DNA of 64,000 nucleotides from Candidatus Binataceae bacterium (GCA_035541875.1 DATKML010000024.1:5030-69029), one strand, 5' to 3'. Counted from the first letter of the stretch, positions 3,992 to 49,944 are shown. Made by a program: numbers and translations. Notes: a model not told the origin generated them from the sequence alone.

Positions 3992-5371
3992 CTATGCCGC
4001 AGCGGCACGATGGATCGTTTCGACCGCCATCATGATGCCTTTACGTGGTCTCAGCGTGATGAGCGGCTCTGGTTCCACAGGGTTGGTCTGCGCAAGTCGC
4101 AGGCGGTAGTTCTGCAGGACCGTGGCGAGGATGAGGCGCGCTTCGAGCTGCGCGAACTGATCGCCGATGCAAAGTCGTGGACCGCCGCCGAACGGAAAAT
4201 AGGTGTAACGCGGTCGCTTGGCTATCTCCTCAGGTCGGAAACGCTCAGGGTCGAAGCGATTCGGATCGCTCCAGAAATCCGGATGACGGTGGGTTACCCA
4301 TTGGCTCAGCAGGACATTGGCGCCCGCCGGGATGCGGTAGCCCATAATCTCATCGTCGGCGATCACCGCACGGGAGATTGCCCACGCCGGCGGATAGAGG
4401 CGCATCGCCTCCTGCAGGACCATCGTGAGGTAGGGCATCCGCGCGATATCCTCAACCGTCGGCAACCGCCCACCGAGCACCTGATCGAATTCGGTGCGTA
4501 GCTTCCCTTCGACTTCCGGCGCACTCGAGAGCAAGTAAAAGGTCCATCCTAGGGCGTTGGCGGTGGTCTCGTGTCCCGCAAGTAGCAGTGTCAGCACTTC
4601 GTCACGGATCTGCTTTGGCGGCATCGGTTCGCCGGTGTCCGCGTCGCGAGCAGCCAATAGCATCGAGAGCAAATCGCCATGATCACGGTCTTCGCGCACC
4701 CGCTCCTCGATGATGCGATCGACGAGCATGTGAAGGCTGCGGTTTGCTCCCTTGAGTTTGCGATTGTGCGCCGTCGGAAGAAACGGCAACAAAAGGCTGA
4801 TGGCGTCGGTCCCGAATAGGCGAACCACTACGCCCAGCGCTTCGGCGACCGTAGCTGCGTCGTCGCCAATCTCTAAATCGATAAGGGTGCGACTGGCGAT
4901 CCGCAGGGCCACTCGCATCATTTCTGCCGTGATATCGAAGGGCTCGCCAGCCTGAAAGCGTGCGTGCCATCCATCCAGCATCCGGGCTGTTTCGTCGATC
5001 ATGATGGCGCCGAATTCCGCAATACGCTGGCGATGGAACATCGGCTGGATAAGCCGTCGCTGCCGCAGCCAAAGCGGATTTTCCGCTGTCAGTAGGCCAT
5101 TGCCGAGCAGCGGCTTCAGCATCTGGTAGTCGAAATTGTTCTTGTTGTAGTTCGAGTGATTCGAGTGCAGGACTCGCTCGACTCCGTCAGGGTGGGACAG
5201 AAAAAAGATTGGCGTGCGGAGAAAGCGGTAGTGCACCACCGGCCCGAAGCGGTGCATATCCTCGATGAGGCGTTCGAGGGGCCGTTTATACATCGCTGCG
5301 GCACTGCCGAAAATGAAGCCCCCACCTGGTCCGGGGGCAATCTGGGCCGACATCGTCGATTGAGCGTTCAT
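3992..5371 (-). CDS. Cytochrome P450
   Basis: Heme-binding loop FGGGPRLCIGDQFA and an ExxR-like region, in a 459-aa protein. Confidence 0.85.
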   Translation of the reverse strand: MNAQSTMSAQIAPGPGGGFIFGSAAAMYKRPLERLIEDMHRFGPVVHYRFLRTPIFFLSHPDGVERVLHSNHSNYNKNNFDYQMLKPLLGNGLLTAENPLWLRQRRLIQPMFHRQRIAEFGAIMIDETARMLDGWHARFQAGEPFDITAEMMRVALRIASRTLIDLEIGDDAATVAEALGVVVRLFGTDAISLLLPFLPTAHNRKLKGANRSLHMLVDRIIEERVREDRDHGDLLSMLLAARDADTGEPMPPKQIRDEVLTLLLAGHETTANALGWTFYLLSSAPEVEGKLRTEFDQVLGGRLPTVEDIARMPYLTMVLQEAMRLYPPAWAISRAVIADDEIMGYRIPAGANVLLSQWVTHRHPDFWSDPNRFDPERFRPEEIAKRPRYTYFPFGGGPRLCIGDQFAQLEARLILATVLQNYRLRLAQTNPVEPEPLITLRPRKGIMMAVETIHRAAAA

Positions 5372-11272: not shown

Positions 11273-12643
11273 TTGGCTCAGCTTGCGGCTTTGGCCAGTG
11301 ACACGATGAAAATCGAGCGGCGCTACTTTATTTGTTTGATCGCAGCTATTGGATTCCTGTCCTACCTTGCAGGTTTCGTCACCACTACGCTGCAGGTCTT
11401 TCCCTACAGTTTCTTCCGCGAAGCCTTTGTGAGTCTGCATCCCAATGACCCGGTCGTCGCACTTGAGGACTCGGATATGTACGTCCGTGTGGCGCCCGGC
11501 AAAACCGGGGTGACCCGTGCCGATTCCTCGCGTACTTATGACGGCTATACTTTGTTTTCCTCGGCATCCGGTCCGAACGCATATCTGGTGGATATGGCGG
11601 GCCGAATCGTTCACGAGTGGTCTCTACCGTACAGCAATGTCTGGAACTCCAAATCAGCGATAAAGGAGCCCGTTGGCTCCAATCTGATTTTTTGGCGTAA
11701 GGCATACCTGTATCCCAACGGCGACTTGCTTGCCATATACGAATCGTGGGCCGATCATCCGTTCGGCTATGGGTTGGTTAAGGTCGATCGCAACTCGCGT
11801 CCGTTGTGGTCTTACCTTGACCACGTGCATCACGACGTTGAAGTTGCACCCGACGGTCGGATCTATGCGTTGAGTCATCGATGGGCCAACGATGTGGTGC
11901 GAAGTTTGCCCGATTACGTTGCTGACGGACATTATGAAGACTTTGTGAACGTCATATCGCCCGACGGCAGGTTGTTACAGCGCGTGTCCGTTCTGGATGC
12001 GCTGGGCAATTCACCTTATGCGCGACTGATCGGTTTGCAGCGTACTTATTTTGATCCGCTACATAGCAACGAAATAACGCCGGTATCGGCAGAATGGGCG
12101 CATCGGCTGGGCGCACGAGGCAACAACAACGTATTGGTGTCCTTACGCAACCTCGATTCTCTAGCGTTGATTGATACCGATGCGGCATCGGTGGTCTGGC
12201 TGAAACGAGGCCCCTTCGCTCGGCAGCATTGTAGTGACGTACTGCCGAACGGCGATATTACGGTCTTCGACAATCTTGGCGACATGGCTCACGGCGCATC
12301 GTCGCGTGTTATCGAATTCAAGCCTCAATCGACTCAGATCGAATGGGAATTTCCCGGGGACAGCAACGAGCAGCTACACAGTCCGATTCTCGGATGCGCC
12401 CAGCGCCTGCCCAACGGCAATACGCTGATCACGGAAGGTGAGGGCGGCCGCGTCTTCGAGGTGGCGACCGATAAGCAAGTGGTGTGGGAGTATTACAACC
12501 CCATGCGTGTCGGCAAGGCGCGTAATTTCACACCGGTGGTTTTTTCCGGACGGCGTTACTCACCGCAAGAAATCCATTTCGAATTCAATCGCGATCCGCA
12601 GGCGAACCTGCGGGTGGCTTCCGCGACGAAGGAGCGACGATGA
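11273..12643 (+). CDS. Arylsulfotransferase (ASST)-like beta-propeller protein with an N-terminal membrane anchor
   Basis: Repeated LPNGN[TI]L / DxxHHDVE / HSNEI blades are typical of ASST-like propellers. The N-terminus has a TM segment and the start may be the internal Met at 11306. The stop overlaps the next start (ATGA). Confidence 0.5.
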   Translation: MAQLAALASDTMKIERRYFICLIAAIGFLSYLAGFVTTTLQVFPYSFFREAFVSLHPNDPVVALEDSDMYVRVAPGKTGVTRADSSRTYDGYTLFSSASGPNAYLVDMAGRIVHEWSLPYSNVWNSKSAIKEPVGSNLIFWRKAYLYPNGDLLAIYESWADHPFGYGLVKVDRNSRPLWSYLDHVHHDVEVAPDGRIYALSHRWANDVVRSLPDYVADGHYEDFVNVISPDGRLLQRVSVLDALGNSPYARLIGLQRTYFDPLHSNEITPVSAEWAHRLGARGNNNVLVSLRNLDSLALIDTDAASVVWLKRGPFARQHCSDVLPNGDITVFDNLGDMAHGASSRVIEFKPQSTQIEWEFPGDSNEQLHSPILGCAQRLPNGNTLITEGEGGRVFEVATDKQVVWEYYNPMRVGKARNFTPVVFSGRRYSPQEIHFEFNRDPQANLRVASATKERR

Positions 12644-20806: not shown

Positions 20807-20971
20807 GGCTTTTCCTTTCGTGACCGCAGGCTCGTAAAAATCAGTTGCCGCCCAGCTTACCACGAAGCCCGCGATGGGGCAGTTATGATTGCGAAGGGGA
20901 TTTGAAGCTGCGAGACCCAAAGCTCAGCCTCGCAGGAAGCAGCAATCGAGCAGGGTTCATTCGACCGGTTC

Positions 20972-38344: not shown

Positions 38345-38383
38345 ACGGGCGGTTAGCTCAGCGGTAGAGCATCGGCCTTACAA
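38345..38383 (+). repeat. attL: 5'-half copy of tRNA-Val (39-bp direct repeat of the intact tRNA-Val at 49868-49906)
   Basis: ACGGGCGGTTAGCTCAGCGGTAGAGCATCGGCCTTACAA is identical at both sites. The left copy lacks the 3' half of the anticodon stem and the T arm, so it is not a functional tRNA. Confidence 0.8.
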
Positions 38384-38397
38384 TCGGATACGTCATC

Positions 38398-38427
38398 CTA
38401 TCTGGCGTTATCTAGGGCTATCTGGCT
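38398..38427 (+). repeat. Three tandem 10-bp repeats (CTATCTGGCG / TTATCTAGGG / CTATCTGGCT) just inside attL, candidate integrase arm-type sites
   Basis: Direct repeats read from the sequence, positioned within 15 bp of the att core on the element side. Confidence 0.4.
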
Positions 38428-38471
38428 AGCAAAAACGGGCCTTTTCTCGATTTGAGATTACGTCGGATTAC

Positions 38472-39296
38472 CTACGGTTCGCTCGAACTGGGCACTGAAC
38501 TGGGCAGAGGAAGCCGTTGCCTGCCGACTTTCAGCGTTGGTGATGACCTCTTGGAGCGGCCTCGCCGAGAGTTTTCTAGTGAGGAAAACACAGCGGCATC
38601 TAGGACACATGGGTATACCCTACACGCTTCGCACAACTCGCGAATACTTTTTAGTACAAATTTATAAAAATTTGGATCGGCGAGCGCGGCAGCGGTGATT
38701 TTAATCGGATAATATAGTTCCTCGTTCAGCCATCTTGTCACGCGACTGTCTAGTGGTATCTCATATCTGGTCAAATGCAATTCTTGCAAGACGTTCCTAG
38801 ACTGTTTGGGTCCGAATCCACGCAGATGACGAGCGATGTAATCGGCTACTTGCTCCTCAACTTGCCAGGAGACCAGCGAGGTTAGTCGATTGCATCGTTC
38901 AAGAATTTGATCTCACGCGTTGTCCTTTCGCAACCTATGCCAGTTTTCAGCTAGGTCCGATGGGATTTTGCGTTTGAACCGTTTCAAGTTGTGGTCTTCA
39001 AAGACCTGCTTGATAAACTCTTCGACGTTTTCCTCTAGCCCAATAGCCGCATAGCTGAGTGGAAATGGCTGCTGTTTGGAAAACAGAGTAACCGCACTCT
39101 CTGGTCCCGAATCTTGAAGCGTAGTAAGCCGCATCTTTACCAGAACTTCCCAAAATCGCTCGCGTGTAACCTCCGCCTTGTTGTCGACGACGTTCATATG
39201 TTGCCGTTCTATGACCAAGAGCGCTTCGGCCTGAGCTGTTACTAGGTTATGGACGTTGTCCAAATCGGCTTGTTCTATGACGAATTGAAGTTTCAT
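38472..39296 (-). pseudogene. Ogg2-family N-glycosylase/DNA lyase (HhH-GPD) interrupted by a single in-frame TGA
   Basis: Track ORFs 38913-39332 and 38472-38789 share a frame and are separated only by TGA at 38913-38915. Continuous translation gives ...KRFKRKIPSDLAENWHRLRKDNA*DQILERCN...LRGFGPKQSRNVLQELHLTRYEIPLDSRV... with a helix-hairpin-helix and catalytic Asp, alignable to archaeal-type Ogg2. The 3' tail runs into repeat DNA near attL. Confidence 0.5.
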
Positions 39297-39394
39297 TTCA
39301 AATTGTCTCCTCAATGTGCGGTGCCGATGCAACTCAAAAACTCTGTAACCTTCATCTCTTCGTCTGCTATCGCGTCCAAAATGTACAACCGGTC

Positions 39395-40141
39395 CTAGGA
39401 TCTCGCGCGTACCCTAGCGTCAACAATCCTCAGAAGATGATTTGCGAGTAAAACAATCTCTAGAGCTTCGGCGGGATCGTCGAGATTTACATCGCGGTGA
39501 GAATGCGGATTTTTATACGAACCGATGGCGCCCGCGAAGAGATTAGCGCGCGCCTCCTTCTCTCCTTGCTCGACCGACGAATCGGTGAGCGCGCCAGTTT
39601 TGGGGTCGAAAGCCTTTCTCATGAGAGTCACGCCGAGTTGGTCGTTGCCAAGACTGGCGGCCTCGCGAACGGCAACTTCCACCGCCTTCATCGCGACAAA
39701 CACCGCCACATCGTATTCGCCTCGCAGAAAAGCTTTCCAGACTGAGTCGTATATCTTTGGCTGGAGAATTTCGCGAGGGAGTAGCTTTGAAGTCCTGAAT
39801 TCCGAGAATTGGGCTCTCGTTGTGATTTTTCGGGCACGGCGGCTGAGCCGCATATTGGCGCTTTGACCCATATCCGGTACAGCGAGTCCCTGCGCCTTCA
39901 ACCATGCCCACGCTTCAGAGAATGCCAAGGTAACTTCCGGCCATGACGGTTCCGGGTACGGTACTGCGACGAAACCGCTTTGAATTCGCCTCCTAAGATC
40001 GAAAGTTGATTCTTGAACTGAAGAGTTTGGAAAGTGGTTCTGCCACAGAAGGATCAATGTTTCTCCGAGTTCCTCGGGTTCCATGGCGAGGAGGATCTTC
40101 TCGTCTTGGATTTTTCGGCATACTTCGTCAAATAGGTCCAC
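39395..40141 (-). CDS. Hypoth_Ymh (TIGR02391) HEPN-type domain protein, Abi-like
   Basis: The C-terminal ~110 aa (LQPKIYDSVWKAFLRGEYDVAVFVAMKAVEVAVRE...LFAGAIGSYKNPHSHRDVNLDDPAEALEIVLLANHLLRIVD) match the conserved Ymh family. N-terminal ~130 aa unassigned. Confidence 0.6.
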   Translation of the reverse strand: MDLFDEVCRKIQDEKILLAMEPEELGETLILLWQNHFPNSSVQESTFDLRRRIQSGFVAVPYPEPSWPEVTLAFSEAWAWLKAQGLAVPDMGQSANMRLSRRARKITTRAQFSEFRTSKLLPREILQPKIYDSVWKAFLRGEYDVAVFVAMKAVEVAVREAASLGNDQLGVTLMRKAFDPKTGALTDSSVEQGEKEARANLFAGAIGSYKNPHSHRDVNLDDPAEALEIVLLANHLLRIVDARVRARS

Positions 40142-40327
40142 GGCCTCAGCATAGTATATTAAGCGCCCAACAGATGCCTTGTTCGCCGTCGGGCCGAGAG
40201 CGGCTTTCGTAGCATCGGCCCGTTTAGCCGATGACCTGGAAAAACTCTAATCAGGTAAAAGCCTCTTAAAGGCCAGTGCCCAATCGCTGGCCACTCTCAT
40301 CATAGGCACTCTTAGCCGTAAAGATCG

Positions 40328-40356
40328 AAAAAACCCCGGCAGGGTTTCTACCGGGG
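40328..40356 (-). terminator. Rho-independent terminator after the zinc-finger gene (minus strand)
   Basis: CCCCGG...CCGGGG stem with a T-run on the minus strand, directly after the stop at 40379. Confidence 0.55.
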
Positions 40357-40378
40357 TTCTAGGTGGAACCAGATGGGC

Positions 40379-40642
40379 TCAGGCAGCAGCAACCGTCGGG
40401 GTCGTAGCCTTGGCGGCGCGGCGCGCCTTTTGAGTTTCAGCCGCCACTTGCGCCTGATCCGCTGCGACCTTGGAGGCGTGCTCGGCAACCGCGCGATCCA
40501 GTTCACGCTTTTCGGCCTTCGCGCGGCGACGATCCTTGGCGCAATCCAAGCAATGCTGGGAAATGTCATACACGCGAGTGTTCTTGGCCGTCCGCAGATG
40601 GCCGCGTTGGCAATGGGTGGTTGCCCGTTTCCCGTCGCTCAA
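40379..40642 (-). CDS. Phage-type small zinc-finger protein (HNH-like Cys/His motif)
   Basis: THCQRGHLRTAKNTRVYDISQHCLDCAKDRRR resembles the CxxGH...N...CxxC small HNH-like proteins of temperate phages, with a basic C-terminal tail. Confidence 0.5.
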   Translation of the reverse strand: MSDGKRATTHCQRGHLRTAKNTRVYDISQHCLDCAKDRRRAKAEKRELDRAVAEHASKVAADQAQVAAETQKARRAAKATTPTVAAA

Positions 40643-41023
40643 CCGCGCTGCCGGGTTGTCCTTCGCTGGTGGGACAGCCTTGGCCTTCCTACGACGGCCC
40701 TTCGTCGTGGGTTAGGCGGCAACCGGGGTCTGCTGCGGCTCATGCTGGGTTTCGACCGTTGGCGTCGCCTCGGCTACGGGTTCCGGCGTCGGACCGATGG
40801 GCGTCGCTGGCAAACTGGGCGTGATCGCCTCGATGGCGGGCTGCGGGTTTGTGATTTGGTTCTGGGGTTTGCGTGATTTTACCATGTGCGTGACCTCCTG
40901 ATGCTGTGTGTTATCCGTGAGTGAACGCACTAGAGCAAGAACCAAGCGTTGGGTTTTCGCAGGAGGGGGAGTCGGAAGGCGAAAAGATTTCTAGTGCATT
41001 AGACGCGCCGCTGGTTAAACTAC

Positions 41024-41569
41024 TTGCTAATGGGGCGGCGTAAAGCGAAATTCACAACGACACTATTCCTAACCGGGATCGCGCTCAGCGGGAGCGGATG
41101 TATGACTATGATCGAACATCACCGCCGGGCGACCATCGAGAACAACGATCTCGCGGCGCGCAAAGCCTGCCTCGACCTTCCCACAGAGCAGATTTCCGAT
41201 TGCCTCGCGCAGGCCAAAGCGGCCAACGATCAGGCGGTGGCCGACGAATTGAAATTCGAGCACCACGTTGAGGTGACGCGCGAAGTCGTCGGCGGGTTGG
41301 CTGGCGGCCTGTCACAGGGCGCGCAATCGTTCGCGCAATCACGGCAGAACGTGATCGACACCCAACAACGACTCGACGAATCGTTCAACTCCAGCGGCGG
41401 GATGCGAATCGATCCACCACCACCGCCCGATCTGCCGACGTTCAACGGCGGACGGCCGGTTCAGGTGGGCGATCCTGTTCCTGATCGTCCGGGGTGGGTT
41501 CACGGACCCAATAACACCGAGGTGCCCTTACCTCCCGAGCCTGCGCCAGTTGGTACTTTCGGCCAGTAG
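41024..41569 (+). CDS. Hypothetical secreted protein or lipoprotein with a Pro-rich C-terminus
   Basis: Signal peptide ending LSGSGC (imperfect lipobox). Pro-rich tail PPPPPDLPTF...PLPPEPAP. Confidence 0.45.
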   Translation: MLMGRRKAKFTTTLFLTGIALSGSGCMTMIEHHRRATIENNDLAARKACLDLPTEQISDCLAQAKAANDQAVADELKFEHHVEVTREVVGGLAGGLSQGAQSFAQSRQNVIDTQQRLDESFNSSGGMRIDPPPPPDLPTFNGGRPVQVGDPVPDRPGWVHGPNNTEVPLPPEPAPVGTFGQ

Positions 41570-41604
41570 GCCGCGCGTTATCGGCTTTATCTGTTTGCGA
41601 GTGC

Positions 41605-41647
41605 AAAAAGGTTGCCGGGGCGCAGGCAGGAGAACCGACGCCCCGGC
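41605..41647 (-). terminator. Rho-independent terminator (minus strand) after the small ORF 41688-41891
   Basis: GCCGGGGCG...CGCCCCGGC stem with an A-run on the plus strand (a T-run on the minus strand). Confidence 0.5.
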
Positions 41648-41687
41648 GTGGTCGCGTCGAACGAGGATGATCGCGCGACCGAGATTG

Positions 41688-41891
41688 TTACGCCGTAAGC
41701 GCGACGATGTTCCATCCCTGTGACAAATACGACGCGAGCTGGTTATTGCCCAGCTTGGCCGTCGTTGAGTCGAATGTGTATTGACCGCTGCTCGGCGCAA
41801 CCTCGACGCCGCTGTACCAGATCGGATTCAAACTGTACGTCGCGGGCGGAGCCAACGTGACGGACGTATAATTCGGATTCGGTGAAGCCAT
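41688..41891 (-). CDS. Small hypothetical protein (67 aa)
   Basis: Followed by its own terminator. Composition is Ser/Thr/Asn-rich and non-repetitive. Confidence 0.35.
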   Translation of the reverse strand: MASPNPNYTSVTLAPPATYSLNPIWYSGVEVAPSSGQYTFDSTTAKLGNNQLASYLSQGWNIVALTA

Positions 41892-41943
41892 AATTTTTCT
41901 CCCTTTGAAGCGCCGCGATGGCGCGATTGAGTAGCATCGACAT

Positions 41944-42348
41944 CTATTTCAATAGACCCATTTGATCGCGTTCGGACGCGCTGAACTCCGCGCGGAGGCA
42001 TTTCTGGAGCGCCCTCGCGGCCTCCGCGTCGGACGTATAGGTTCCCTGCGCTGCCTTCTGGATGACCCGTTTGAGCCGGGCGTTGCGAGCGTTCCGGGTT
42101 GCGGTTCCGGCATGGATCACGGCGACCCCGGCGGCCATGCGAATCTTCTCGGCCCGTTCATCGGCATCCAACCCACCCAGCCCGGATATTGATGCCGATT
42201 TGGTGATCCGCCCGAGATGGCCGGGATTCGATTGGCCTGTACGTTGTGGAACCAGCCGGGCACGGGCTTCCGCGAATGAACGCCGCGAATCGCGCTTCTC
42301 TAAAGCCGTGAAGCCGCTCGGATTATCCGGGCGATCAACCAGCACCAC
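41944..42348 (-). CDS. Hypothetical protein (island cargo; start uncertain, frame stays open upstream without an ATG)
   Basis: A 134-aa ORF. In-frame upstream extension reads TVHFVGIDQFNRVVLVDRP, so the true start may be a GTG. Confidence 0.35.
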   Translation of the reverse strand: MVLVDRPDNPSGFTALEKRDSRRSFAEARARLVPQRTGQSNPGHLGRITKSASISGLGGLDADERAEKIRMAAGVAVIHAGTATRNARNARLKRVIQKAAQGTYTSDAEAARALQKCLRAEFSASERDQMGLLK

Positions 42349-42471
42349 GCGGTTGAATTGATCGATGCCAACGAAATGAACCGTGCCGCCGCGGCCTTGG
42401 CGAGGGCGGCCTCGTTCTCAATCTCAAACGTCAGCCCGTCCGTCGTGGTAATGACGCGGCCCTCGGTCCGT

Positions 42472-42687
42472 TTAATCTGGTGGTACTGCATTTGCTCGTT
42501 CCTTTTCATCGATCAGGTCGGTGCCGTGATCGACCAGCAAGATGTTTTTGATCTCGGGGTGTTCTCGGTGAAAAATTGCCTCGGCCTCGTCGCGATTGGC
42601 GGCCAAGATCCCGATGTAAGGCGGCCACGTCAGCCAAACACCGCCGCCGGGGCGGTGCCATAGATGGGCGGTCAAAATCCGGCTCAT
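42472..42687 (-). CDS. Hypothetical protein (about 71 aa from MSRILTAHLWHRPGGG...)
   Basis: The distal part of track ORF 42472-42816 looks protein-like. The Arg/Gly-rich upstream extension looks non-coding. Confidence 0.3.
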   Translation of the reverse strand: MSRILTAHLWHRPGGGVWLTWPPYIGILAANRDEAEAIFHREHPEIKNILLVDHGTDLIDEKERANAVPPD

Positions 42688-42859
42688 CCCTTCGGCTCCT
42701 CGGTCCGTTCCACGTCGGATGATTCCTTCGCGGCAGCCACCCGCTGCTCGATTTCCGTGGGGCTTAGTTCCCGCACGGGTCCGTTCTTGCGCTGAAATCG
42801 ACGCGTGAACCGGCACCGGTAAATTCCGTTATTCGCTAATTGCCGGGGCGATCGTGGTG

Positions 42860-43093
42860 TCACGCGACCGCTCCTTGCGGCCCGGCGGCCAACGCCTTGA
42901 GCCAACGCGCACGACGAGGCGCAGCCAATTCACCGACCAGCCAATCCACAAGGGACGGCAACGCGAAGGCGTTGAATCGGGCGTTGATAGGCGTAACCGA
43001 AGGGCCACGGGATTGGTGGCGTAACCGCCATAACCCAACCCGCGTGATCCCGAGAATGCTAGTTAAATCGGCCGTCGATGCGATTGCGTCCAT
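42860..43093 (-). CDS. AlpA/excisionase-family helix-turn-helix regulator
   Basis: MDAIASTADLTSILGITRVGLWRL is a canonical AlpA-type HTH. Confidence 0.6.
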   Translation of the reverse strand: MDAIASTADLTSILGITRVGLWRLRHQSRGPSVTPINARFNAFALPSLVDWLVGELAAPRRARWLKALAAGPQGAVA

Positions 43094-43457
43094 CGTGACA
43101 AGATGTTAGCAACGTCGTTCCATTCCTTGAAGGGGCGGCTCGATATCCGGGCGGCCCCGAGAAAACCGAGGCACACAAACGCCGTGTGTGCCCGTTTCCA
43201 ACCCGCCTTGGCATCCTTGCCCGAGGCTCGTTCCCGCAATTCGGCCAGCGTAGCCAGCCATCGAAGACCGTCGCGTTCCGGCAACCTCTGTCATCGCTAA
43301 AAAACCTATCGCTAACCCTGTCTGCCGGTTAGCCTTTGGCGATAATGGAACTCACACCGGTTCACCAGTTCGGCGATTGGTACGCCAAGCGAGAAGACTT
43401 GGCCTATTACGTCAACGACGAAACCTCGAGCGGCTCTAAGGTTCGCCAATATGAGCG

Positions 43458-44249
43458 ATGATCGCGGCAACGCCCGGCACGCTAATCGTTGGGTGTTCGG
43501 CGGCGTCGGCGATGCAGGTTTACGTTGCTGATTGTGCCAACCGGCACGGCCTACCGGGCATTGTGTATGTTGCCGGGCGCAAGAAACCGACGCCATCAAC
43601 CAAATACGCCATGACGGCCGGGGTTGATGTTCGGCCCGTAAGTCCGGGCTACCTCACAACCGTTCGAGCGAGAGCGCGCGCCGAGGCGCTAAGAATCGGC
43701 GGGTGTGTCGGGTGGAGCGAATCGACGGCCAAAGAGGACACCGCAGCCCAGTGCGCCAACATTCCGGACGATGTGAAGCGTATCGTGGTGCCGACGGGAT
43801 CGGGGGCTACGCTGAAGGGGATCGTTGATGGCATGAAGCGCCTCGGGCGCAGCGTGCCGATTCTGGCCGTTGCCGTTTCCGGTATGTACGAAGACGTTGA
43901 TGGTGTAGAGGCGATCCACCTAACCCGCGATTACGACGACGAAGAGGCCGCCATATTACCCGACGGAAGCTATCTCGATCCCTATTACGCCGCAAAGGCG
44001 CTCAAGTTCGTCCGCCCCGGCGATTGTTTGTGGGTATCGGGTAGGCGCTCGATCTTGGCGATCAAGAAAATCACGCGCACCAAAATAGAACTCCTGCGCA
44101 AGAACCCAACGTTAGGACGTTGGCGTGATTCCAAATGCACCACGTTGCTATCGGGGGCTCAGCAGCGGGCCGACAATCGATCCGGGGCCGAACCGCTGCT
44201 GGACGGTTCCGCGAATACTTGTGGCCATCATATCGAGGGCCTTGGTTGA
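43458..44249 (+). pseudogene. Fragment of a fold-type II PLP enzyme (ACC deaminase / D-cysteine desulfhydrase family) lacking the N-terminal PLP-lysine region
   Basis: KRIVVPTGSGATLKGIVDGMKRLG matches the glycine-rich loop and LDPYYAAKALKFVRPGDCLWVSGG matches the LDPVYTGKA...HTGG motif. The N-terminal ~100 aa are missing. The 3' end overlaps the convergent terL by ~100 bp. Confidence 0.45.
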
Positions 44250-45896
44250 CGCGGGCGCTGGATCGGCTTCCTTCATAGGCGGTCCGTCCGGTTCCGGGCA
44301 CGGACCCCGATGCCAGAACCTCGCGCCGCCGTCGGTGAGGTAGTTTTTCTCCATCACGGGCCGTTTGCATTTGCCGCAGATACGTTCTCGGCGGATCAGG
44401 TTTTGCACGATCTCCGATTCCCGCCGCTCGACGCCGGGTACGCGCAGCCCAACCGCCACGGCGGCCCACTGAGATGCGTCCATGCCCCGTTGCCCTTCTT
44501 GGACCGCACCCAGCGCGGCCTGCGCCAACGCAACAATCACGTCGATTTTATGCGACGTTTTCTCCTTCGCGATGCGCCACCCACGGGTGGTTTCCAAGGC
44601 GACACAGCGCGAGATCGATAGGCGCATATCGGCGTCGGGGTACAGGATCAAATTCGCGCCCTTGATGATTTCGTACAGGTTGGAACTGGCTTCCGTGAGG
44701 TTCGGCACCGACTGCGGAAATTCGATCATCGGCAACCCGTTCCCGCGAAGGCGCTGCGCTACGGCCACAAGCTGGTACGGATCATATCGCACCTCGCGGA
44801 TGCTGAACCGGGTTCGCATCTCCAACAGGGTGCGCTCGATGGTCGCCTCGAAGTCGAGCGGATCGTCCGGCGATGGCTGGAAAATCCGATGCCAAACGAG
44901 CCGCACCTTCTTGGCGTCGCGATCCCAGCCGCAAACCACGATCGCGGTGCTATCGCGTTTGACCGATGCGTCAACGCCAACCCAGACGGGAAGCCGTTGA
45001 TCGGCCAGGATGGGATGTAGCGCCGAATCGACGCAAGCGTCCCACCACTCGATGGGTACGAACTCCGATTCTGACGTCACCCACCTGTTTTCAACGTGGC
45101 GAAGGTAGGCGTTTTGCCTAGTAGATTGGCGCATCTGTTCGCGCCACGCATCGGTTTGCCACGGAGCCGGACCGGTATGCGTCCAATACGCCAACATTCC
45201 GGGCTGCTCGTACAAATCCGGGCCGACCACCTTCCCGGCGATCCCGCGTTTGTAGAGCCCTTCGAGCAACTCGGATTCGCCCTCGAAGCCTGCATAGGTG
45301 ACGGTTAAGCGCCCGGATACCTTGCGCGTGGGTGAAAACACGCCCTCATCCCACAACCTATGCGAGGCCTCCGATGCGAACGCCCACAATTCGTCCCACA
45401 CGGTTAGCGTCGGGTTCGCCCCTGCGAAGCCCTTGAAATCGTTCGCGACGGCCGAGATGAACGCGCCGGTCGAAATGAACGTGATCCGATCCGCCGTTAC
45501 CTTGGCGGAGTTTCGCAGCAGGGGCGACGCTTGAACGATCCTGGCGGCGGCTTGGAACACGCGACCAACGGCCTGATCGTAATCGTTCGCGAGGGCGTAT
45601 ACCTCGGCGTAGGGGCCGCCGATCACCACGGCGACGTAGATTGCGACCATCGCGGCTAGGGCGGTTTTGCCGGATTTCTTCGGCGCTGAGTAGAGCATCT
45701 CCGGGAACGGCAAACGGCCGTCCGGCGTCAAAACGAGAGCGCGGCGCAGGAACTCGATTTCGGCAGCGTACAACTCGAAGGGTGATCCCGTTTCCGGGTT
45801 GATCGAAACCTCATGGACGAAGGCTACCGGATCTGCGCGCCAACGAGCCGCAGCCTTGGCCTGTTCACTCGATGGGTTCGGCTTGCTTGATGGCAC
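44148..45896 (-). CDS. terL: Phage terminase large subunit
   Basis: Walker A-like APKKSGKTALAAM, Walker B TVWDELW, RNase H-like nuclease region VWVGVDASVKRD, and a C-terminal Cys cluster CGKCKRP...HRGPCPE. Confidence 0.75.
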   Translation of the reverse strand: MPSSKPNPSSEQAKAAARWRADPVAFVHEVSINPETGSPFELYAAEIEFLRRALVLTPDGRLPFPEMLYSAPKKSGKTALAAMVAIYVAVVIGGPYAEVYALANDYDQAVGRVFQAAARIVQASPLLRNSAKVTADRITFISTGAFISAVANDFKGFAGANPTLTVWDELWAFASEASHRLWDEGVFSPTRKVSGRLTVTYAGFEGESELLEGLYKRGIAGKVVGPDLYEQPGMLAYWTHTGPAPWQTDAWREQMRQSTRQNAYLRHVENRWVTSESEFVPIEWWDACVDSALHPILADQRLPVWVGVDASVKRDSTAIVVCGWDRDAKKVRLVWHRIFQPSPDDPLDFEATIERTLLEMRTRFSIREVRYDPYQLVAVAQRLRGNGLPMIEFPQSVPNLTEASSNLYEIIKGANLILYPDADMRLSISRCVALETTRGWRIAKEKTSHKIDVIVALAQAALGAVQEGQRGMDASQWAAVAVGLRVPGVERRESEIVQNLIRRERICGKCKRPVMEKNYLTDGGARFWHRGPCPEPDGPPMKEADPAPASTKALDMMATSIRGTVQQRFGPGSIVGPLLSPR

Positions 45897-46326
45897 GGTC
45901 CTTCTCCTCGGCAGCGGCGTTCAACGCGGCAAACTCACCGGCCAGATCCCTTCCCTTGTCGGACAACCCGGCTAGCTGCCTACGGGCTGCCGGGGTTAGC
46001 CCTAGTTCGCGGGCAATGGTTAGCTGCGCCGCCCGCAGCGCCCGATATTCGCCGAGGAGTTTCCGGGGTTCACCCTGATCGGTCGTCGGACCCTCGTCGC
46101 GCAGGCGTCCGTAGATAACGGTGGCGAGGATTTCAAGCTCGCACCATGCTCGGGCAGCCGGGCCGTCGCTATCGACCAACCACGGGCAGGCGCGGCGCAT
46201 CTTACCGAGCAGGTGATAAACCCGACGATCCCGGACGGCAACACCCTTCTTCAAGGCGACATATAGGCTTCTGGTGTTGTTCTTCGCCATTACAAACCCC
46301 GTGCGGATCACTGTAACCAGCGTCAA
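45865..46326 (-). CDS. terS: Phage terminase small subunit, P27 family
   Basis: ARELGLTPAARRQL and the overall layout match P27-family TerS. It overlaps the terL start, and the true start may be MAKNNT (46290). Confidence 0.6.
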   Translation of the reverse strand: MTLVTVIRTGFVMAKNNTRSLYVALKKGVAVRDRRVYHLLGKMRRACPWLVDSDGPAARAWCELEILATVIYGRLRDEGPTTDQGEPRKLLGEYRALRAAQLTIARELGLTPAARRQLAGLSDKGRDLAGEFAALNAAAEEKDRAIKQAEPIE

Positions 46327-46535
46327 CCAAAGCTGTAAGCAGCGCCGCCCGAAGCTGGTCGCAAGGCGTAGATTATCGAAGGGATGGCCAGCGACTGGGC
46401 ACTGGCATCAAAAAGCCTTTGACTTTATTGAGGTTTTTCGGCGTTATCGGTTTTGATGGCCGATGTACTGTTGAACGGGGCTTTGACAAGATAGCCGGAC
46501 CCCACAAATCCTCTGATTGCGCCATTCTCCCGTTC

Positions 46536-46712
46536 ATGAAGCAGCATCACACCGAGCGCGAACAGCGCTTTCTCGATCTTGCTAGTACCCTAGCCAACGA
46601 GTTCGCGCCTCGCTCCGCCAAGTACGATACCGAAGAAGCTTTTCCCTTAGAGAATTACGCCCAGTTGAGAATCTCTTCATTGACTCGGGTTGTTCATTCA
46701 TGCCAGATCTGA
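46536..46712 (+). pseudogene. N-terminal remnant of an acyl-CoA dehydrogenase
   Basis: MKQHHTEREQRFLDLASTLANEFAPRSAKYDTEEAFPLENYAQLR is a typical ACAD N-terminus, then degenerates and terminates after ~58 aa. Confidence 0.45.
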
Positions 46713-46760
46713 TGCCGCTAGTCTTTACGTACTCCCGTTCGCTGCGAGAGGAGGATTCTA

Positions 46761-47297
46761 ATGAGCCCGGAAACCATTCACGACAAGTTACGGCTCTACC
46801 CCGTGATTGCGTCAATAGTCTTCTTCTGCTTGGTAAAGTCGGCGTTTGCGGCCGGGCCCGTAACGTCGCCATTCACTGCTACAGGTTCTGGCGTGAGTGC
46901 GGGCGCTCTAAGCACATGTTCACAGTGCACTACTGGCCACACGTGTATATGCGTGCCTCTTAGCGGTACGGGCAAAGCTAGCGTGATTGGCACAGTGAAT
47001 TGGACGACAACGGTGGTTCTCGACGAAACCAACCCAGAGGCAGGTGACTGCATCGATACGTACGGCACGGTAACGCTAACGGCCAAGAGCAGCTCCAAAA
47101 ACGCTCTTTCGATAGATTATCATGGTTTTGAGTGCTCGGTAGGCACCAATTACACCCTCAACGGAACGTACGTGATCAATCCCGCCAACTCTACGGGAAA
47201 ATTCCTAAACTACAAAGGCTCGGGGAACCTAGCCGGCAGCGAGGATTCCAACAGCGACATTTTGGGTAACCTAAGCGGTACAATCCAAACGCCGTAA
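46761..47297 (+). CDS. Secreted Cys-rich hypothetical protein
   Basis: Signal peptide (cleavage after SAFA), Cys/Thr/Gly-rich mature region, locally lower GC. Confidence 0.5.
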   Translation: MSPETIHDKLRLYPVIASIVFFCLVKSAFAAGPVTSPFTATGSGVSAGALSTCSQCTTGHTCICVPLSGTGKASVIGTVNWTTTVVLDETNPEAGDCIDTYGTVTLTAKSSSKNALSIDYHGFECSVGTNYTLNGTYVINPANSTGKFLNYKGSGNLAGSEDSNSDILGNLSGTIQTP

Positions 47298-47315
47298 ACC
47301 CATCCACCCACCGAG

Positions 47316-47346
47316 CAAAAGCGTAAGCCGCGCTACCGATGGGCGC
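47316..47346. terminator. Bidirectional hairpin terminator between convergent genes
   Basis: Perfect inverted repeat GTAAGCCGCGC...GCGCGGCTTAC with T-rich flanks on both strands. Confidence 0.55.
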
Positions 47347-47357
47347 GGCTTACTTTC

Positions 47358-47741
47358 TTATGAACACAACGCCGGAGCCGAGTCGCTGCTCCTGTACCAT
47401 AGCCAGCGCGCGCCAAGATTTTCACCTGAGTCAAAAACGGAGTCGACAAACTTGGTAGTTGCTAAGTACGGCTTTTCTATAATCGTGATCGAAAACTGCC
47501 AAATCGTCCCTTCGTCCAGCGCGTCCATCAACTTATTGGCTATCTCCGCGACTTTCGACGCGGGCTGAATCTCGTTCGCATGTATTTCGGGCACTCCGAG
47601 CTCGGCCCTATAACCGTTCAGAACGGAACTGACGATTGGCTCGATATCGTCAACTGACAGAATCGCTCCTTGGCGATAGAAGGCAGGAGGAGCAAAGATG
47701 TTCTTCCCGCTGTGCCCACTCTCGTCCGCGTAAATGTGCAT
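47358..47741 (-). CDS. DUF3800 family protein, short form (127 aa)
   Basis: N-terminal MHIYADESGHSG (the IYxDESG motif) and ELGVPEIHANEI (the EIHAxE motif). Full-length family members are usually about 220-260 aa. Confidence 0.55.
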   Translation of the reverse strand: MHIYADESGHSGKNIFAPPAFYRQGAILSVDDIEPIVSSVLNGYRAELGVPEIHANEIQPASKVAEIANKLMDALDEGTIWQFSITIIEKPYLATTKFVDSVFDSGENLGARWLWYRSSDSAPALCS

Positions 47742-48174
47742 TAAGGTCCTCTAAAAACGAACTGAATTCAAAATGATCGGCCATTGGAGCTGGGCCCGTT
47801 AGTAACCTATTGGGCGCTCCTCCCCAAGCAAGGCTGAGAATTAGCGCTTCCGTGCCGTCAAGGAGCCGGATCCGATACGTCCTCTCGGTCGTGGTAGCGC
47901 TTGAGATAGATCAGTACGTCTTGGTGAACGCGAGTGACGCCTTTACCCTTACGCTTGATAAGCGCGGCCGCCCTCATCGGTGCTGACAAAAAAGCCGTCG
48001 CCAAAGTTGATACCTGAACAAGCTCGCAACCTGCGAGCATAAAATTCACCCGCATTTCGACTTCGCGCTTTTCGACTTCGGGCTTGGGGAATTTGTAGGG
48101 ACGACGCCCCTAAGGGTAATAGAAACTCGATTTTCCTCCATCCCTGACGCTACAGTTCTGTCTAGGAGATTAAC

Positions 48175-48591
48175 ATGAAGCTAGCGCTGATTCACAATCG
48201 CGACGATCAAGGGTATTGCCGGGCATGCGAAGCCCTATCCGAGGCGTTCGGTGTCGGATTCTGCCGAACCGATGGATCGCACGTCAGGTTAACCGAGCTG
48301 GTTGCCGAATCCGATCTCGCGCAAACCCTATGCAATGAAACCCGGCTGATGGCAATCCTACGGCTAACCTCGCTCGCCTCGAATCTGGCCGCCGGGATGG
48401 CCGAGGATCAGCCTCGATCATCGGAACCCGCGCCCCTGATCGATGCAGCGCAAATGGCGAAGCACCTGAACTTACCGGAGTCGTGGGTGCGTAGCGAACA
48501 GCGCGCAGGGCGAATTCCGTTTGTCCAAGCCGGGCGATACGTGCGTTTCAACGCCGCCGAGGTTGAGGCGGCCATCCGGCAGCGGAGCTAA
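48175..48591 (+). CDS. xis: Excisionase-family DNA-binding protein
   Basis: C-terminal LIDAAQMAKHLNLPESWVRSEQRAGRIPFVQAGRYVRFNAAEVEAAI is a MerR-like excisionase HTH. It lies directly upstream of int, with AGGAGA RBS. Confidence 0.6.
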   Translation: MKLALIHNRDDQGYCRACEALSEAFGVGFCRTDGSHVRLTELVAESDLAQTLCNETRLMAILRLTSLASNLAAGMAEDQPRSSEPAPLIDAAQMAKHLNLPESWVRSEQRAGRIPFVQAGRYVRFNAAEVEAAIRQRS

Positions 48592-48682
48592 CCAAATGGC
48601 AAAGATCCAAAAACATCACGGCGACGGATGCGATCAGAAGAATTGCGACTGCCCGTACAGGCTCGATTATTGACCGCTCGGT

Positions 48683-49831
48683 ATGAACGGCCCACGCAAA
48701 CGGATCGAGTTCCCCACGAAGAAGGCTGCCGAGAAGTTCCTTGCGGAGACGGCACACAAGGCATCACGGGGCGAATACATCGATCCCGGCAAGGTGCCAC
48801 TATTCACCGTGGTGGCGGAGCAATGGTTTCGCTCCAAGGTAGATTTCCGGCCGTCTCACGTTGTCGATCTCCGAGGCCGCCTCGACAAGCATTTGATCCC
48901 GGCGTTCGGATCGCGGCGGCTCGATGAGATCCGTGTGATTGATATCGAGAAGCTCCGAGATGATCTACGCGACAACGGTCACGCGCGCACCACGGTTAAC
49001 CGCGCTGTCCAGATCGTGAACGCTATCTTCAAGTTGGCTATTCGGCAGGGGCGTTGCGCTATCAATCCAACGGAGCGGGTAGATCGGATCAAACAAACCG
49101 CAGCCGAGATCCGGCTCGACGACGATGGCGACGATCCGACGCCGGATGACATCCTGAACCCGGACGAGATTCGACGGTTGCTCGACGCTGCTATTCCGGG
49201 GTTTGATCGCAGGTTGTTCATGATGGCCTTCGTTTCCGGTGCACGCCAAGGCGAACTATTCGCGCTTCAATGGACGGACATCGAGCTGCCCAAGGACGGC
49301 AGCGCAGCAGGGCGGATGCACATCAGGCGCACACTATCGTGGAGCCACCCCAAGGGCGAATCGCCGCGCCCACGATTCTATCCACCCAAAACCAAGGCAG
49401 GCCTACGATCCATCGAGATCCCACCTGGATTAGTTGCGGCCCTGAAGCGCTGGAAGCTCCAATGCCCGGCGTCGCCTATCGGGCTTGTGTTCCCACGATC
49501 AGATGGGCAGCCTATGTACCGTGAATTTATGCTCCGTCGGCGTTTCTATCCGGCCCTCAACCGCGCGCGCTTGCGCCGCGTTCGATTCCATTCCCTGCGC
49601 CATTCATGCGCGTCCGCTATGATCGCGGCAGGGGCGTCGATCACCGAGGTCCAGCATCATCTCGGACACGCATCCCCGGCTATGACGCTGGGCACCTATT
49701 CCCATTGGTTCCGAAACGCCGAGGGTAGCGGGGCGGTCCAGCGCTTGAGCCGGATGGTCGCCGAGGGGAACTGGGCAGAAACTGGGCACTTGAATGAATC
49801 GGATTCTGCCGAAGAGGCGGTTTCAGCTTGA
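48683..49831 (+). CDS. int: Tyrosine-type site-specific integrase
   Basis: C-terminal catalytic region HSLRHSCASAMIAAGASITEVQHHLGHASPAMTLGTYSHW (R..HxxR..Y). It ends 38 bp before tRNA-Val. Confidence 0.88.
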   Translation: MNGPRKRIEFPTKKAAEKFLAETAHKASRGEYIDPGKVPLFTVVAEQWFRSKVDFRPSHVVDLRGRLDKHLIPAFGSRRLDEIRVIDIEKLRDDLRDNGHARTTVNRAVQIVNAIFKLAIRQGRCAINPTERVDRIKQTAAEIRLDDDGDDPTPDDILNPDEIRRLLDAAIPGFDRRLFMMAFVSGARQGELFALQWTDIELPKDGSAAGRMHIRRTLSWSHPKGESPRPRFYPPKTKAGLRSIEIPPGLVAALKRWKLQCPASPIGLVFPRSDGQPMYREFMLRRRFYPALNRARLRRVRFHSLRHSCASAMIAAGASITEVQHHLGHASPAMTLGTYSHWFRNAEGSGAVQRLSRMVAEGNWAETGHLNESDSAEEAVSA

Positions 49832-49869
49832 AAAAAGCCTCGATAAATCGGAGGCTTAGCTGACTCGAC

Positions 49870-49944
49870 GGGCGGTTAGCTCAGCGGTAGAGCATCGGCC
49901 TTACAAGCCGAGGGTCGCAGGTTCGAAACCTGCACCGCCCACCA
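49870..49944 (+). tRNA. tRNA-Val (anticodon TAC)
   Basis: GGGCGGT acceptor stem pairing with ACCGCCC, D-loop AGCTCAGCGGTAGAGC, anticodon loop CTTACAA, T-arm GGTTCGAAACC, and an encoded CCA. The 5' half is the attR copy of the direct repeat. Confidence 0.9.

Follow-up and report, generated by a model that had tools for sequence, protein, structure and literature searches.

A probable satellite-like integrative island on the 5′ side of a tRNA-Val gene in Candidatus Binataceae, with a nonsense codon in its integrase

The locus considered here raises the question of whether an exact direct repeat that duplicates the 5′ half of a tRNA gene marks the ends of an integrated mobile element, and, if so, what kind of element this might be and whether the present copy is still able to leave its site. 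It lies in a stretch of 64,000 nt from Candidatus Binataceae bacterium (GCA_035541875.1 DATKML010000024.1:5030-69029), hereafter the window, and the names attached to identical proteins likewise place the host in Candidatus Binataceae. The phylum of this host has no cultured members and, to our knowledge, no described mobile elements. An initial annotation made from the DNA alone (the sequence-only reading) had proposed an 11.5-kb integrative element in tRNA-Val at this position. We assign a probability of roughly 0.8 to the interpretation that this is a site-specific integrative island in tRNA-Val(TAC), equipped with a lambda-type integrase that binds core and arm sites, satellite-like in its gene content, and represented here by a copy that is probably impaired in excision.

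The 39-mer ACGGGCGGTTAGCTCAGCGGTAGAGCATCGGCCTTACAA is present in the window as two exact copies, at 38345-38383 and 49868-49906, with a spacing of 11,523 bp, and none of 100 dinucleotide-preserving shuffles produced a match to it. ARAGORN calls a single tRNA gene in the entire 64 kb, and the right copy of the repeat corresponds to the two bases upstream of this gene together with its positions 1-37. Counted through the cloverleaf, the anticodon loop CTTACAA occupies 49900-49906, the last base of the repeat being the last base of the loop. The three features on which the argument turns are these:

38345-38383, plus strand: attL identity block, the displaced native 5′ part of tRNA-Val (positions −2 to +37), not a functional tRNA; the empty-site alignment ends at 38383
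49868-49906, plus strand: attR identity block, which is the 5′ portion of the functional tRNA-Val; the sequence upstream of the crossover would be supplied by the element
49870-49944, plus strand: tRNA-Val(TAC), supported by ARAGORN, the cloverleaf fold and identity with the empty sites

The tRNA-Val gene is intact, encodes its CCA end, adopts the cloverleaf as its minimum-free-energy fold (z score of −3.86 against shuffles) and has the same sequence as the tRNA of the empty sites described below. The left copy elicits no tRNA call from ARAGORN, runs on into unrelated sequence and, with a z score of −0.43, shows no better folding than shuffles, in line with the earlier statement that it cannot fold into a tRNA. 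Outside the repeats, genes for Lon and HU (hup) on the left and for a Bac_luciferase/LLM oxidoreductase on the right bear out the claim of a core chromosomal context.

An HU protein identical to the one encoded left of the repeat occurs on 15 public metagenome contigs. Four contigs provided empty sites (L002, L003, L004 and L010), in which hup is directly followed by the intact tRNA-Val gene. On the two that extend far enough, L002 and L004, the next called gene lies about 260-310 bp past the tRNA without any insertion; its product matches Bac_luciferase in L002, and in L004 it is cut by the end of the contig and has no Pfam record. The order hup, tRNA-Val and LLM gene, which the sequence-only reading had expected of genomes lacking the insertion, is hence seen whole in L002 and as hup and tRNA-Val in the other three. 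The alignment of L002 with the window splits at the element: it ends at 38383, resumes at 49869 and overlaps by 38 bp, giving a base-precise empty attB, with 99.8% identity in the left flank and 99.4% in the right, the flanks of L002 and L003 taken together being 99.4-99.8% identical to the window. Contigs L004 and L010 are more distant, with about 92% identity across Lon-hup and short right-flank matches of 81-84%; as these too are empty, the adjacency of hup and tRNA-Val is the ancestral state. The base at 38345/49868, two before the tRNA, is A in the window and either A or C among the empty sites, and the identity between attP and attB therefore amounts to 38 or 39 bp.

The junctions of the occupied site are reproduced by independent assemblies (ENA, JGI and Logan), attL in L001 and L005 and attR in L012 and L014. 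A further contig, L006 (ENA ERZ27256505, 2254-2323), has a left flank 99.6% identical to that of the window and carries ACGGATACGCCATG after the core instead of TCGGATACGTCATC; this differing sequence, of which only 28 bp are present on the contig, indicates that a second, related but diverged element uses the same tRNA-Val attB in another strain. A look-up of the 127-aa left-end protein returned the same locus and one contig ending inside the repeat, and nothing else, and a search of IMG/VR with the attL/attP junction pattern found no match. As a separate observation, the element is 100% identical across independent assemblies (the window, L001, L011, L005 and L012), and comparison of the window with the ERZ27256510 contig shows no single-nucleotide polymorphism (SNP) in the element versus nine SNPs in about 20 kb of flanking chromosome. 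We did not accept this as a sign of recent transfer; the flank SNPs probably represent a mixed-strain consensus, as the flanks are common to strains that lack the element.

The layout of attP is lambda-like, with a pair of a short motif on each side of the core. Of five exact copies of the 9-mer AACTGGGCA in the 64 kb, four form two tandem pairs, one lying 103-123 bp rightward of the left core copy and the other 111-131 bp leftward of the right anticodon loop:

38486-38506, plus strand: P′ arm, two tandem putative arm-type sites AACTGGGCA, with copies at 38486 and 38498
49769-49788, plus strand: P arm, two tandem putative arm-type sites AACTGGGCA, with copies at 49769 and 49780, inside the 3′ coding end of the integrase gene (int)

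In an excised circle the core would lie between these pairs, which would form the P and P′ arm sites of an attP of about 260 bp. The pair on the int side encodes the peptide NWAETGH, and homologous integrase genes carry (A/G)AGTGGGCAnAAAGTGGGCA at the equivalent position, their products therefore sharing a conserved WAxSGH peptide near their C-termini. Equivalent tandem motifs are found in the same place in L175, L177, L179, L017, L097, L099, L019 and L185. In L017, where the integrase (Int) is 45% identical to that of the window and the target is tRNA-Ser(GCT), a 42-bp repeat of gene positions −1 to +40 lies 10.3 kb upstream and TTGGACAC is present twice in each arm. In L113, with an Int of about 30% identity, there is a 43-bp 5′-half repeat with one mismatch accompanied by pairs of AATGTCGGCA.

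These observations suggest the following mechanism. The attP would consist of the P arm with its two sites in the 3′ end of int, the 38-39-bp 5′ part of the tRNA, and the P′ arm with its two sites, and Int would bridge the arm and core sites. Strand exchange would most likely occur in the 7-nt anticodon loop, with the arms of the anticodon stem serving as the core-type sites; an identity block that ends at the 3′ edge of the anticodon loop and extends 1-2 bp past the 5′ end of the tRNA is as expected for such a crossover. The 11,523-bp unit sits between position 37 of tRNA-Val and the remainder of the gene, with the excisionase-like gene (xis) and int abutting the rebuilt gene. Integration would displace the native 5′ half and the sequence that drives its transcription 11.5 kb leftward, leaving an orphan beside hup, and the element would supply the working tRNA from position 1 to about 31-37, along with everything upstream, in such a way that the rebuilt tRNA is identical to the original. 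With the native upstream region displaced, the tRNA must then be transcribed from element DNA, for which a promoter in the 3′ end of int or in the spacer, or read-through from xis-int, could suffice. This requirement for element-borne transcription of the tRNA is a likely explanation for the rarity of the 5′ mode.

The enzyme predicted to perform these reactions is encoded next to attR, together with a candidate directionality factor:

48596-49831, plus strand: tyrosine integrase, full frame, with TGA at 48671-48673 (codon 26) and a residual open reading frame (ORF) from ATG 48683
48175-48591, plus strand: HTH_17 excisionase-like gene, a candidate Xis/recombination directionality factor (PF12728, 3e-6; phrog_66 and phrog_1840, excisionase)

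The ORF at 48683-49831 (382 aa) is that of a tyrosine recombinase (PF00589, 2.5e-20; PF22022; PF14659; phrog_1) and stops 36 bp short of the right repeat. The placement of an integrase against attR by the sequence-only reading was correct to this extent; what it missed is that the gene is interrupted. By tblastn with the homologue P0002 (73% identity) we located a longer frame, which starts at ATG 48596, preceded by GGAG, and contains an in-frame TGA at codon 26, the N-terminus reading MAKIQKHHGDGCDQKNCDCPYRLDY-TGA-PLGMNGPRK. The closest 120 homologues are mostly of about 410-430 aa (about 418 aa for the family) and start with MASIxKFHxxxCxGxxCxCxWxLDYRPLG, in which a His, three Cys and the Arg of the YRP position are near-invariant; the TGA takes the place of this Arg. 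The stop is most simply explained by one CGA-to-TGA change. The same TGA is present in every other assembly that covers the position (L011, L012, L013 and L014) and is therefore not an assembly error. In the rest of the protein the catalytic columns R188, K236, H303, R306, H329 and Y339 (numbering of the 382-aa ORF) are all present, and 93 of the 94 columns conserved at 95% or more are retained; we accordingly read the gene as an otherwise healthy one with one recent lesion.

The AlphaFold model of P0002 (mean pLDDT, the predicted local distance difference test score, of 75, and 77-86 over the first 50 residues) opens with three strands (residues 3-6, 21-25 and 35-39) and a helix (42-57), which precede the core-binding and catalytic domains, and it aligns over about 370 columns with full-length lambda Int (1z1g, 1z1b, 5j0n) and with Tn1549 Int. 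We take the modeled N-terminal strand-strand-strand-helix unit to be the arm-binding domain. The earliest restart of the window Int corresponds to family residue 30, and with it strands 1 and 2 of the three are lost, the TGA cutting the frame after strand 2. In the same region we noticed that the N-terminus of this Int subclade has a near-invariant His-x3-Cys-x4-Cys-x-Cys (P0002 residues 8-19) between predicted strands 1 and 2, an insertion that is absent from the integrase subclade of L017 and L019 and that may form a zinc knuckle within the arm-binding domain.

The excisionase-like gene ends 4 bp before the real start of int, and its counterpart is kept beside int in L175, L177, L179, L017 and L185. 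A second, AlpA-type helix-turn-helix (HTH) gene, which had been listed next to the excisionase, was not found among the small ORFs of the element; only the HTH_17 gene stands for both. The remaining content between the repeats is as follows:

38913-39332, minus strand: ORF of 127-139 aa in the low-GC left arm, called in L001/L189; no family matches
39395-40141, minus strand: 248-aa protein with a C-terminal Ymh HEPN-like domain (PF09509, 2.3e-26; TIGR02391, 2.9e-18)
40373-41569, plus strand: two ORFs (167 aa; 155-181 aa), called in L001; no family matches
41688-43093, minus strand: run of small ORFs, called in L001 and L190; no family matches
43458-44249, plus strand: 263-aa PALP-like ORF (PF00291, 1.5e-6, below the gathering score; phrog_3650), overlapping the 3′ end of TerL
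44148-45896, minus strand: large terminase subunit (TerL) with ATPase and nuclease domains (PF03354 and PF20441; phrog_9, 5.6e-55), apparently intact
45865-46326, minus strand: probable small terminase subunit (TerS), with sub-threshold matches to Terminase_4 and Terminase_6, overlapping the start of TerL
46582-48055, both strands: small ORFs of 96 aa (minus), 178 aa (plus), 127 aa (minus) and 65 aa (minus), between the packaging genes and xis; no significant family matches

The proposed terminase pair is thus upheld, firmly for TerL and with a weak match for TerS, and so are the low-GC patches, the left and right arms having a GC fraction of 0.51 and 0.53 on either side of a centre at 0.61, against about 0.585 for the chromosome. 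TerL agrees with 146 of the 147 columns conserved at 95% or more among 119 homologues, and at E <= 1e-30 its family comprises 2,029 proteins. At 582 aa it is longer than most of its homologues, which are of about 510-530 aa and cover about 78% of it in local alignments; a tail of about 110 aa past residue 470 looks poorly conserved, and in a global alignment the C-termini of the homologues fall at a median query residue of 564. The last ~100 nt of its gene overlap the PALP-like ORF on the opposite strand (regions 44148-44486 and 43458-44249). The 248-aa Ymh protein, with weak PADLOC matches to PD-Lambda-3_B and Aga_HEPN, is a candidate for defense or abortive-infection cargo. About 15 remaining ORFs matched nothing in Pfam, PHROGs, NCBIfam or PADLOC, and no portal, capsid, protease, tail or lysis gene was found in the element with Pfam, PHROGs and NCBIfam.

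Comparable combinations recur in other Binataceae. Contig L185 has an integrase of the same family, HTH_17, a D5-type primase, TerS and a TerL of about 72% identity; L175 has an Int of 73% identity, HTH genes, TerS and a TerL of about 50% identity; and L183 combines another integrase with HTH_17, a replication initiator, TerS, TerL and a methyltransferase. ORFs homologous to that in the TerS position are present in L175, L183 and L187, and two of the small ORFs of our element (42472-42816 and 42860-43093) have relatives in the TerL-bearing L183 at 4536-5202 by tblastx. The ORFs of L175, L183 and L185 gave matches only to replication initiators and primases, and none to capsid or portal proteins; L183 and L185 are no shorter than about 12-13 kb, their contigs ending before the far boundary. 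The nearest terminases and integrases of cultured phages are only 25-29% identical. On this basis we read the element as a satellite-like island or a cut-down derivative rather than a phage, and as a member of a recurrent Binataceae group that pairs this Int family with this TerL family.

The main rival to a satellite-like origin is that the element is a decayed prophage, stripped by internal deletions of its structural, lysis and replication genes but still endowed with both att ends, xis-int, TerS and TerL. We regard this as a live, though lesser, possibility. The nonsense codon in int shows that decay has begun; this copy has no replication gene, which its relatives L183 and L185 do have; and the stepped composition (0.51, 0.61, 0.53) is mosaic. 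The closest TerL relative in IMG/VR, L181 at 55% identity, comes from a phage-like fragment that also carries replication genes of the VapE and AAA_24 types, and lone TerL genes occur among metabolic genes in L187 and L188. However, the near-complete retention of conserved columns in TerL and Int implies minimal decay; an orphan TerS-TerL with xis-int and without a portal gene after TerL recurs in the diverged L175 and L185; and L183 and L185 gave no structural-gene matches. The lone TerL genes deserve a remark of their own: in L187 and L188 (10001-11557) a TerL 70% identical to that of the window, together with a TerS-like ORF, is embedded among metabolic genes with no integrase within 10 kb, and may be a stranded remnant or a domesticated terminase.

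The second rival concerns mobility. In lambda-type integrases the arm-binding domain is needed for both integrative and excisive recombination. As the TGA leaves at best an N-truncated Int without two of the three strands of this domain, excision is probably impaired, and we think it somewhat more likely than not that this copy can no longer excise efficiently. On the opposing view the element is fully mobile, enough active Int being made by read-through of the TGA, selenocysteine insertion or reinitiation at ATG 48683. The stop context is UGA-C and the ATG begins 10 nt after the stop; the rest of Int, including its catalytic residues, is intact; both pairs of arm sites and both core copies are perfect; near-identical strains differ in the presence of the element; and one Binataceae relative, L099, carries a tRNA-SeC gene. 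Against this, the Arg is near-invariant and no homologue has a stop in its place, which points to a mutation and not to a conserved recoding signal; the only Shine-Dalgarno-like sequence, GGAG, precedes ATG 48596 and not ATG 48683; and the predicted N-terminal domain would be left without its first two strands. A selenocysteine reading of the TGA was judged unlikely in its own right, the column being that of a near-invariant Arg. We hence consider full mobility unlikely. That the locus is not mobile in origin at all, being a chimera of assembly or binning or the outcome of non-site-specific recombination that duplicated the 5′ half of the tRNA locally, is effectively refuted: short contigs that end inside the repeat (L007, L008, L009, L013 and L190) do betray difficulty for assemblers, but the junctions are crossed by assemblies from different samples and pipelines, the boundaries of the insertion and of the empty site agree base for base, the junction holds an integrase flanked by pairs of the arm motif, and relatives show the same geometry at other tRNAs.

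For the preferred interpretation of a site-specific, satellite-like island with an impaired integrase, several points have to be set on the other side of the balance. No excised circle or attP junction was seen, contigs breaking inside the repeat, and the empty sites need not stem from excision but could be ancestral. We infer the function of the arm sites and the point of crossover only from position and conservation. A scan with sigma-70-type promoter and terminator consensus sequences found no promoter-like site in the neighbourhood of the int-tRNA spacer or of attL. This copy yielded neither a primase nor another replication gene, whereas L183 and L185 have such genes; the TerS match lies below the Pfam thresholds, and no helper phage is known for this putative satellite. 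Finally, reinitiation at ATG 48683 or read-through of the TGA might leave the truncated Int functional.

The use of the 5′ side is shared by most relatives of this integrase in Binataceae. Co-oriented int genes lie just upstream of tRNA-Val(TAC) in L175 (Int 73% identical) and L179 (61%), of tRNA-Leu(CAA) in L177/L178, of tRNA-Ser(GCT) in L017/L097 and of tRNA-SeC in L099. Conversely, L018, L019 and L185 show the usual 3′ arrangement, with int and tRNA-Arg(CCT) convergent. The integrases of L018/L019 are 58% identical to that of L017 and have the same TTGGACAC arm motif, and that of L185 is 52% identical to the window Int. Among more distant Int relatives in metagenomes, 17 are co-oriented with the tRNA and 11 convergent. 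It thus appears that 5′-side use is, for the most part, the usual habit of this integrase subclade in Binataceae and not a peculiarity of this locus, which makes the finding less unusual than the sequence-only reading implied. That integrases with 58% identity and the same arm motif take opposite halves of their tRNA genes fits the dyad symmetry of the anticodon stem-loop, which would let the orientation of attP flip in evolution. A crossover within such a symmetric stem-loop predicts mirror-image blocks that start or stop at the anticodon loop; consistent with this, 3′ blocks begin at gene positions 31-32 in L177 and L023, and a 5′ block bounded by the loop is found in L017 as well.

Two of these contigs merit separate mention. 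On L177 (JGI 3300082281) a single tRNA-Leu(CAA) gene, at 11293-11378, is occupied on both sides: upstream by a 5′-side integrase of the window Int family, and downstream by a separate 3′-side element of about 9.5 kb, with its own unrelated integrase and a Prim-Pol gene, whose boundary is marked at 20808-20863 by a 56-bp repeat of gene positions 31-86. In L015 and L016 (9914-12081) the Int is 56-57% identical to that of the window and has the same His/Cys N-terminus, and no tRNA lies downstream, an Rfam scan finding no RNA gene past int in L015; the next feature is a co-oriented 264-aa ORF that starts 135 bp past the int stop. These integrases may target the 5′ end of a protein-coding gene.

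Within the element we also observed an imperfect internal inverted repeat (66-81 nt, 73-76% identity), found in this element alone:

40213-40293, plus strand: left copy, with anticodon-arm-like and arm-motif-like hairpins, at the GC shift from 0.51 to 0.61
46385-46465, minus strand: right copy, just upstream of TerS

The two copies bound the high-GC central segment, each just upstream of an inward-facing gene block, and each has three hairpins and a z score of about −3.7. The first hairpin resembles the anticodon arm of tRNA-Val (AGCATCGGCC is identical), and within the third lies TGCCCA(A/G)T, which is the arm-type motif in reverse complement. Possible roles of the repeat are those of regulatory sites bound by Int, of relic att sites or of a shared leader. 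The idea that the 81-nt repeats delimit an invertible or inverted 6.25-kb module was rejected as unnecessary, the orientation of TerS-TerL relative to int being the same as in L185; moreover, the loops of the two copies differ, and recombination between them is therefore unlikely.

The locus provides a cleanly mapped instance of the minority 5′-side mode of integration into a tRNA gene, with a matching empty site and a readable attP, and the comparison of the family to which it belongs is the more useful product. What it adds is a nonsense allele of int, which cautions against assuming mobility from perfect att sites; an attP with arm sites inside the int ORF; a flip between 5′ and 3′ sides within one integrase clade; and recurrent, small, capsid-less TerS-TerL elements of Binataceae, which may constitute a new kind of satellite. 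Furthermore, the integrase-attP-attB sets for tRNA-Val, Ser, Leu and Arg could be mined as recombination tools. A bolder proposal, which we put forward very tentatively and consider doubtful, is that these elements form an undescribed family of Binatia phage satellites with a full terminase and no capsid genes, whose Int has arm sites in its own C-terminal coding sequence, a His/Cys insertion, and the capacity to switch between tRNA halves and possibly to the 5′ ends of protein genes. If true, 5′-side integration of such satellites would take over transcription of a host tRNA.

How the element relates to known systems can be judged from several comparisons. The element is not a complete temperate prophage, which would have structural, lysis and replication modules; at 11.5 kb, its only phage-typical genes are TerS, TerL, xis and int. 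The PICIs, or phage-inducible chromosomal islands, are defined in SatelliteFinder by a core of int, an alpA/merR-type regulator, a primase-replicase, TerS and a capsid-modification gene, and the capsid-forming PICIs (cfPICIs) by terL, capsid, portal, protease and a head-tail adaptor or connector, with no tail or holin (PMC10085698). Our element resembles both in its integrated state, its size of about 11.5 kb, its int, HTH regulator or excisionase and TerS, its probable defense cargo and its lack of tail and lysis genes, and its terL is otherwise a cfPICI marker. It departs from PICIs in that neither a primase-replicase nor a capsid-modifying gene was found with Pfam, PHROGs and NCBIfam and in that its int is defective, and from cfPICIs in that no capsid, portal, protease or connector was matched, remote homologues among the family-less ORFs being possible; it also differs from both in having no known helper phage.

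The integrase family has the organization of lambda and Tn1549 Int, namely an arm-binding unit, a core-binding domain and a catalytic domain with R-K-H-R-H-Y, and its predicted fold aligns with that of lambda Int; the adjacent excisionase-like HTH gene and the attP of about 260 bp with repeated putative arm motifs on both sides of the core are further points of likeness. It is unlike them in its 16-19% sequence identity, in the His/Cys/Cys/Cys insertion of the N-terminal domain in this subclade, and in its target, a tRNA anticodon loop whose 5′ half would be carried in attP. Among tDNA islands, those of Klebsiella clade I.d integrate upstream of the arg2 tRNA gene (10.1101/2020.11.02.365908) and, like our element, lie upstream of their target, an exception in that survey; the hosts are unrelated, and the sublocation reported for arg2 is the D loop, versus the anticodon-loop boundary seen here.

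The closest counterpart is the 5′ class of Islander, whose configuration filter allows islands of this type and which lists 159 islands with a 5′ fragment versus 3,760 with a 3′ fragment, of 3,919 in total (PMC4383910), in keeping with the earlier remark that 5′ duplication is uncommon. As in that class, there is a full, intact tRNA gene with a cognate 5′ fragment on the same strand upstream of it, a tyrosine integrase inside, and a size (11,523 bp) within the range of 2-200 kb; the uninterrupted target that the TIGER mapping method looks for in relatives is present in L002, L003, L004 and L010; the att block, bounded by 49906, is centred on the anticodon loop, the Islander ‘A’ site, a sublocation class of tRNA-targeting integrases described by Williams 2002 as summarised in PMC4383910 and PMC7192596. 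The differences lie in the nonsense-truncated integrase, the P-arm sites inside the int ORF, and the uncultured Binataceae host, unmentioned in the 2014 paper, which surveyed complete genomes. Islands with a 5′ tDNA fragment are hence an already documented minority type, of which the present island is a further example.

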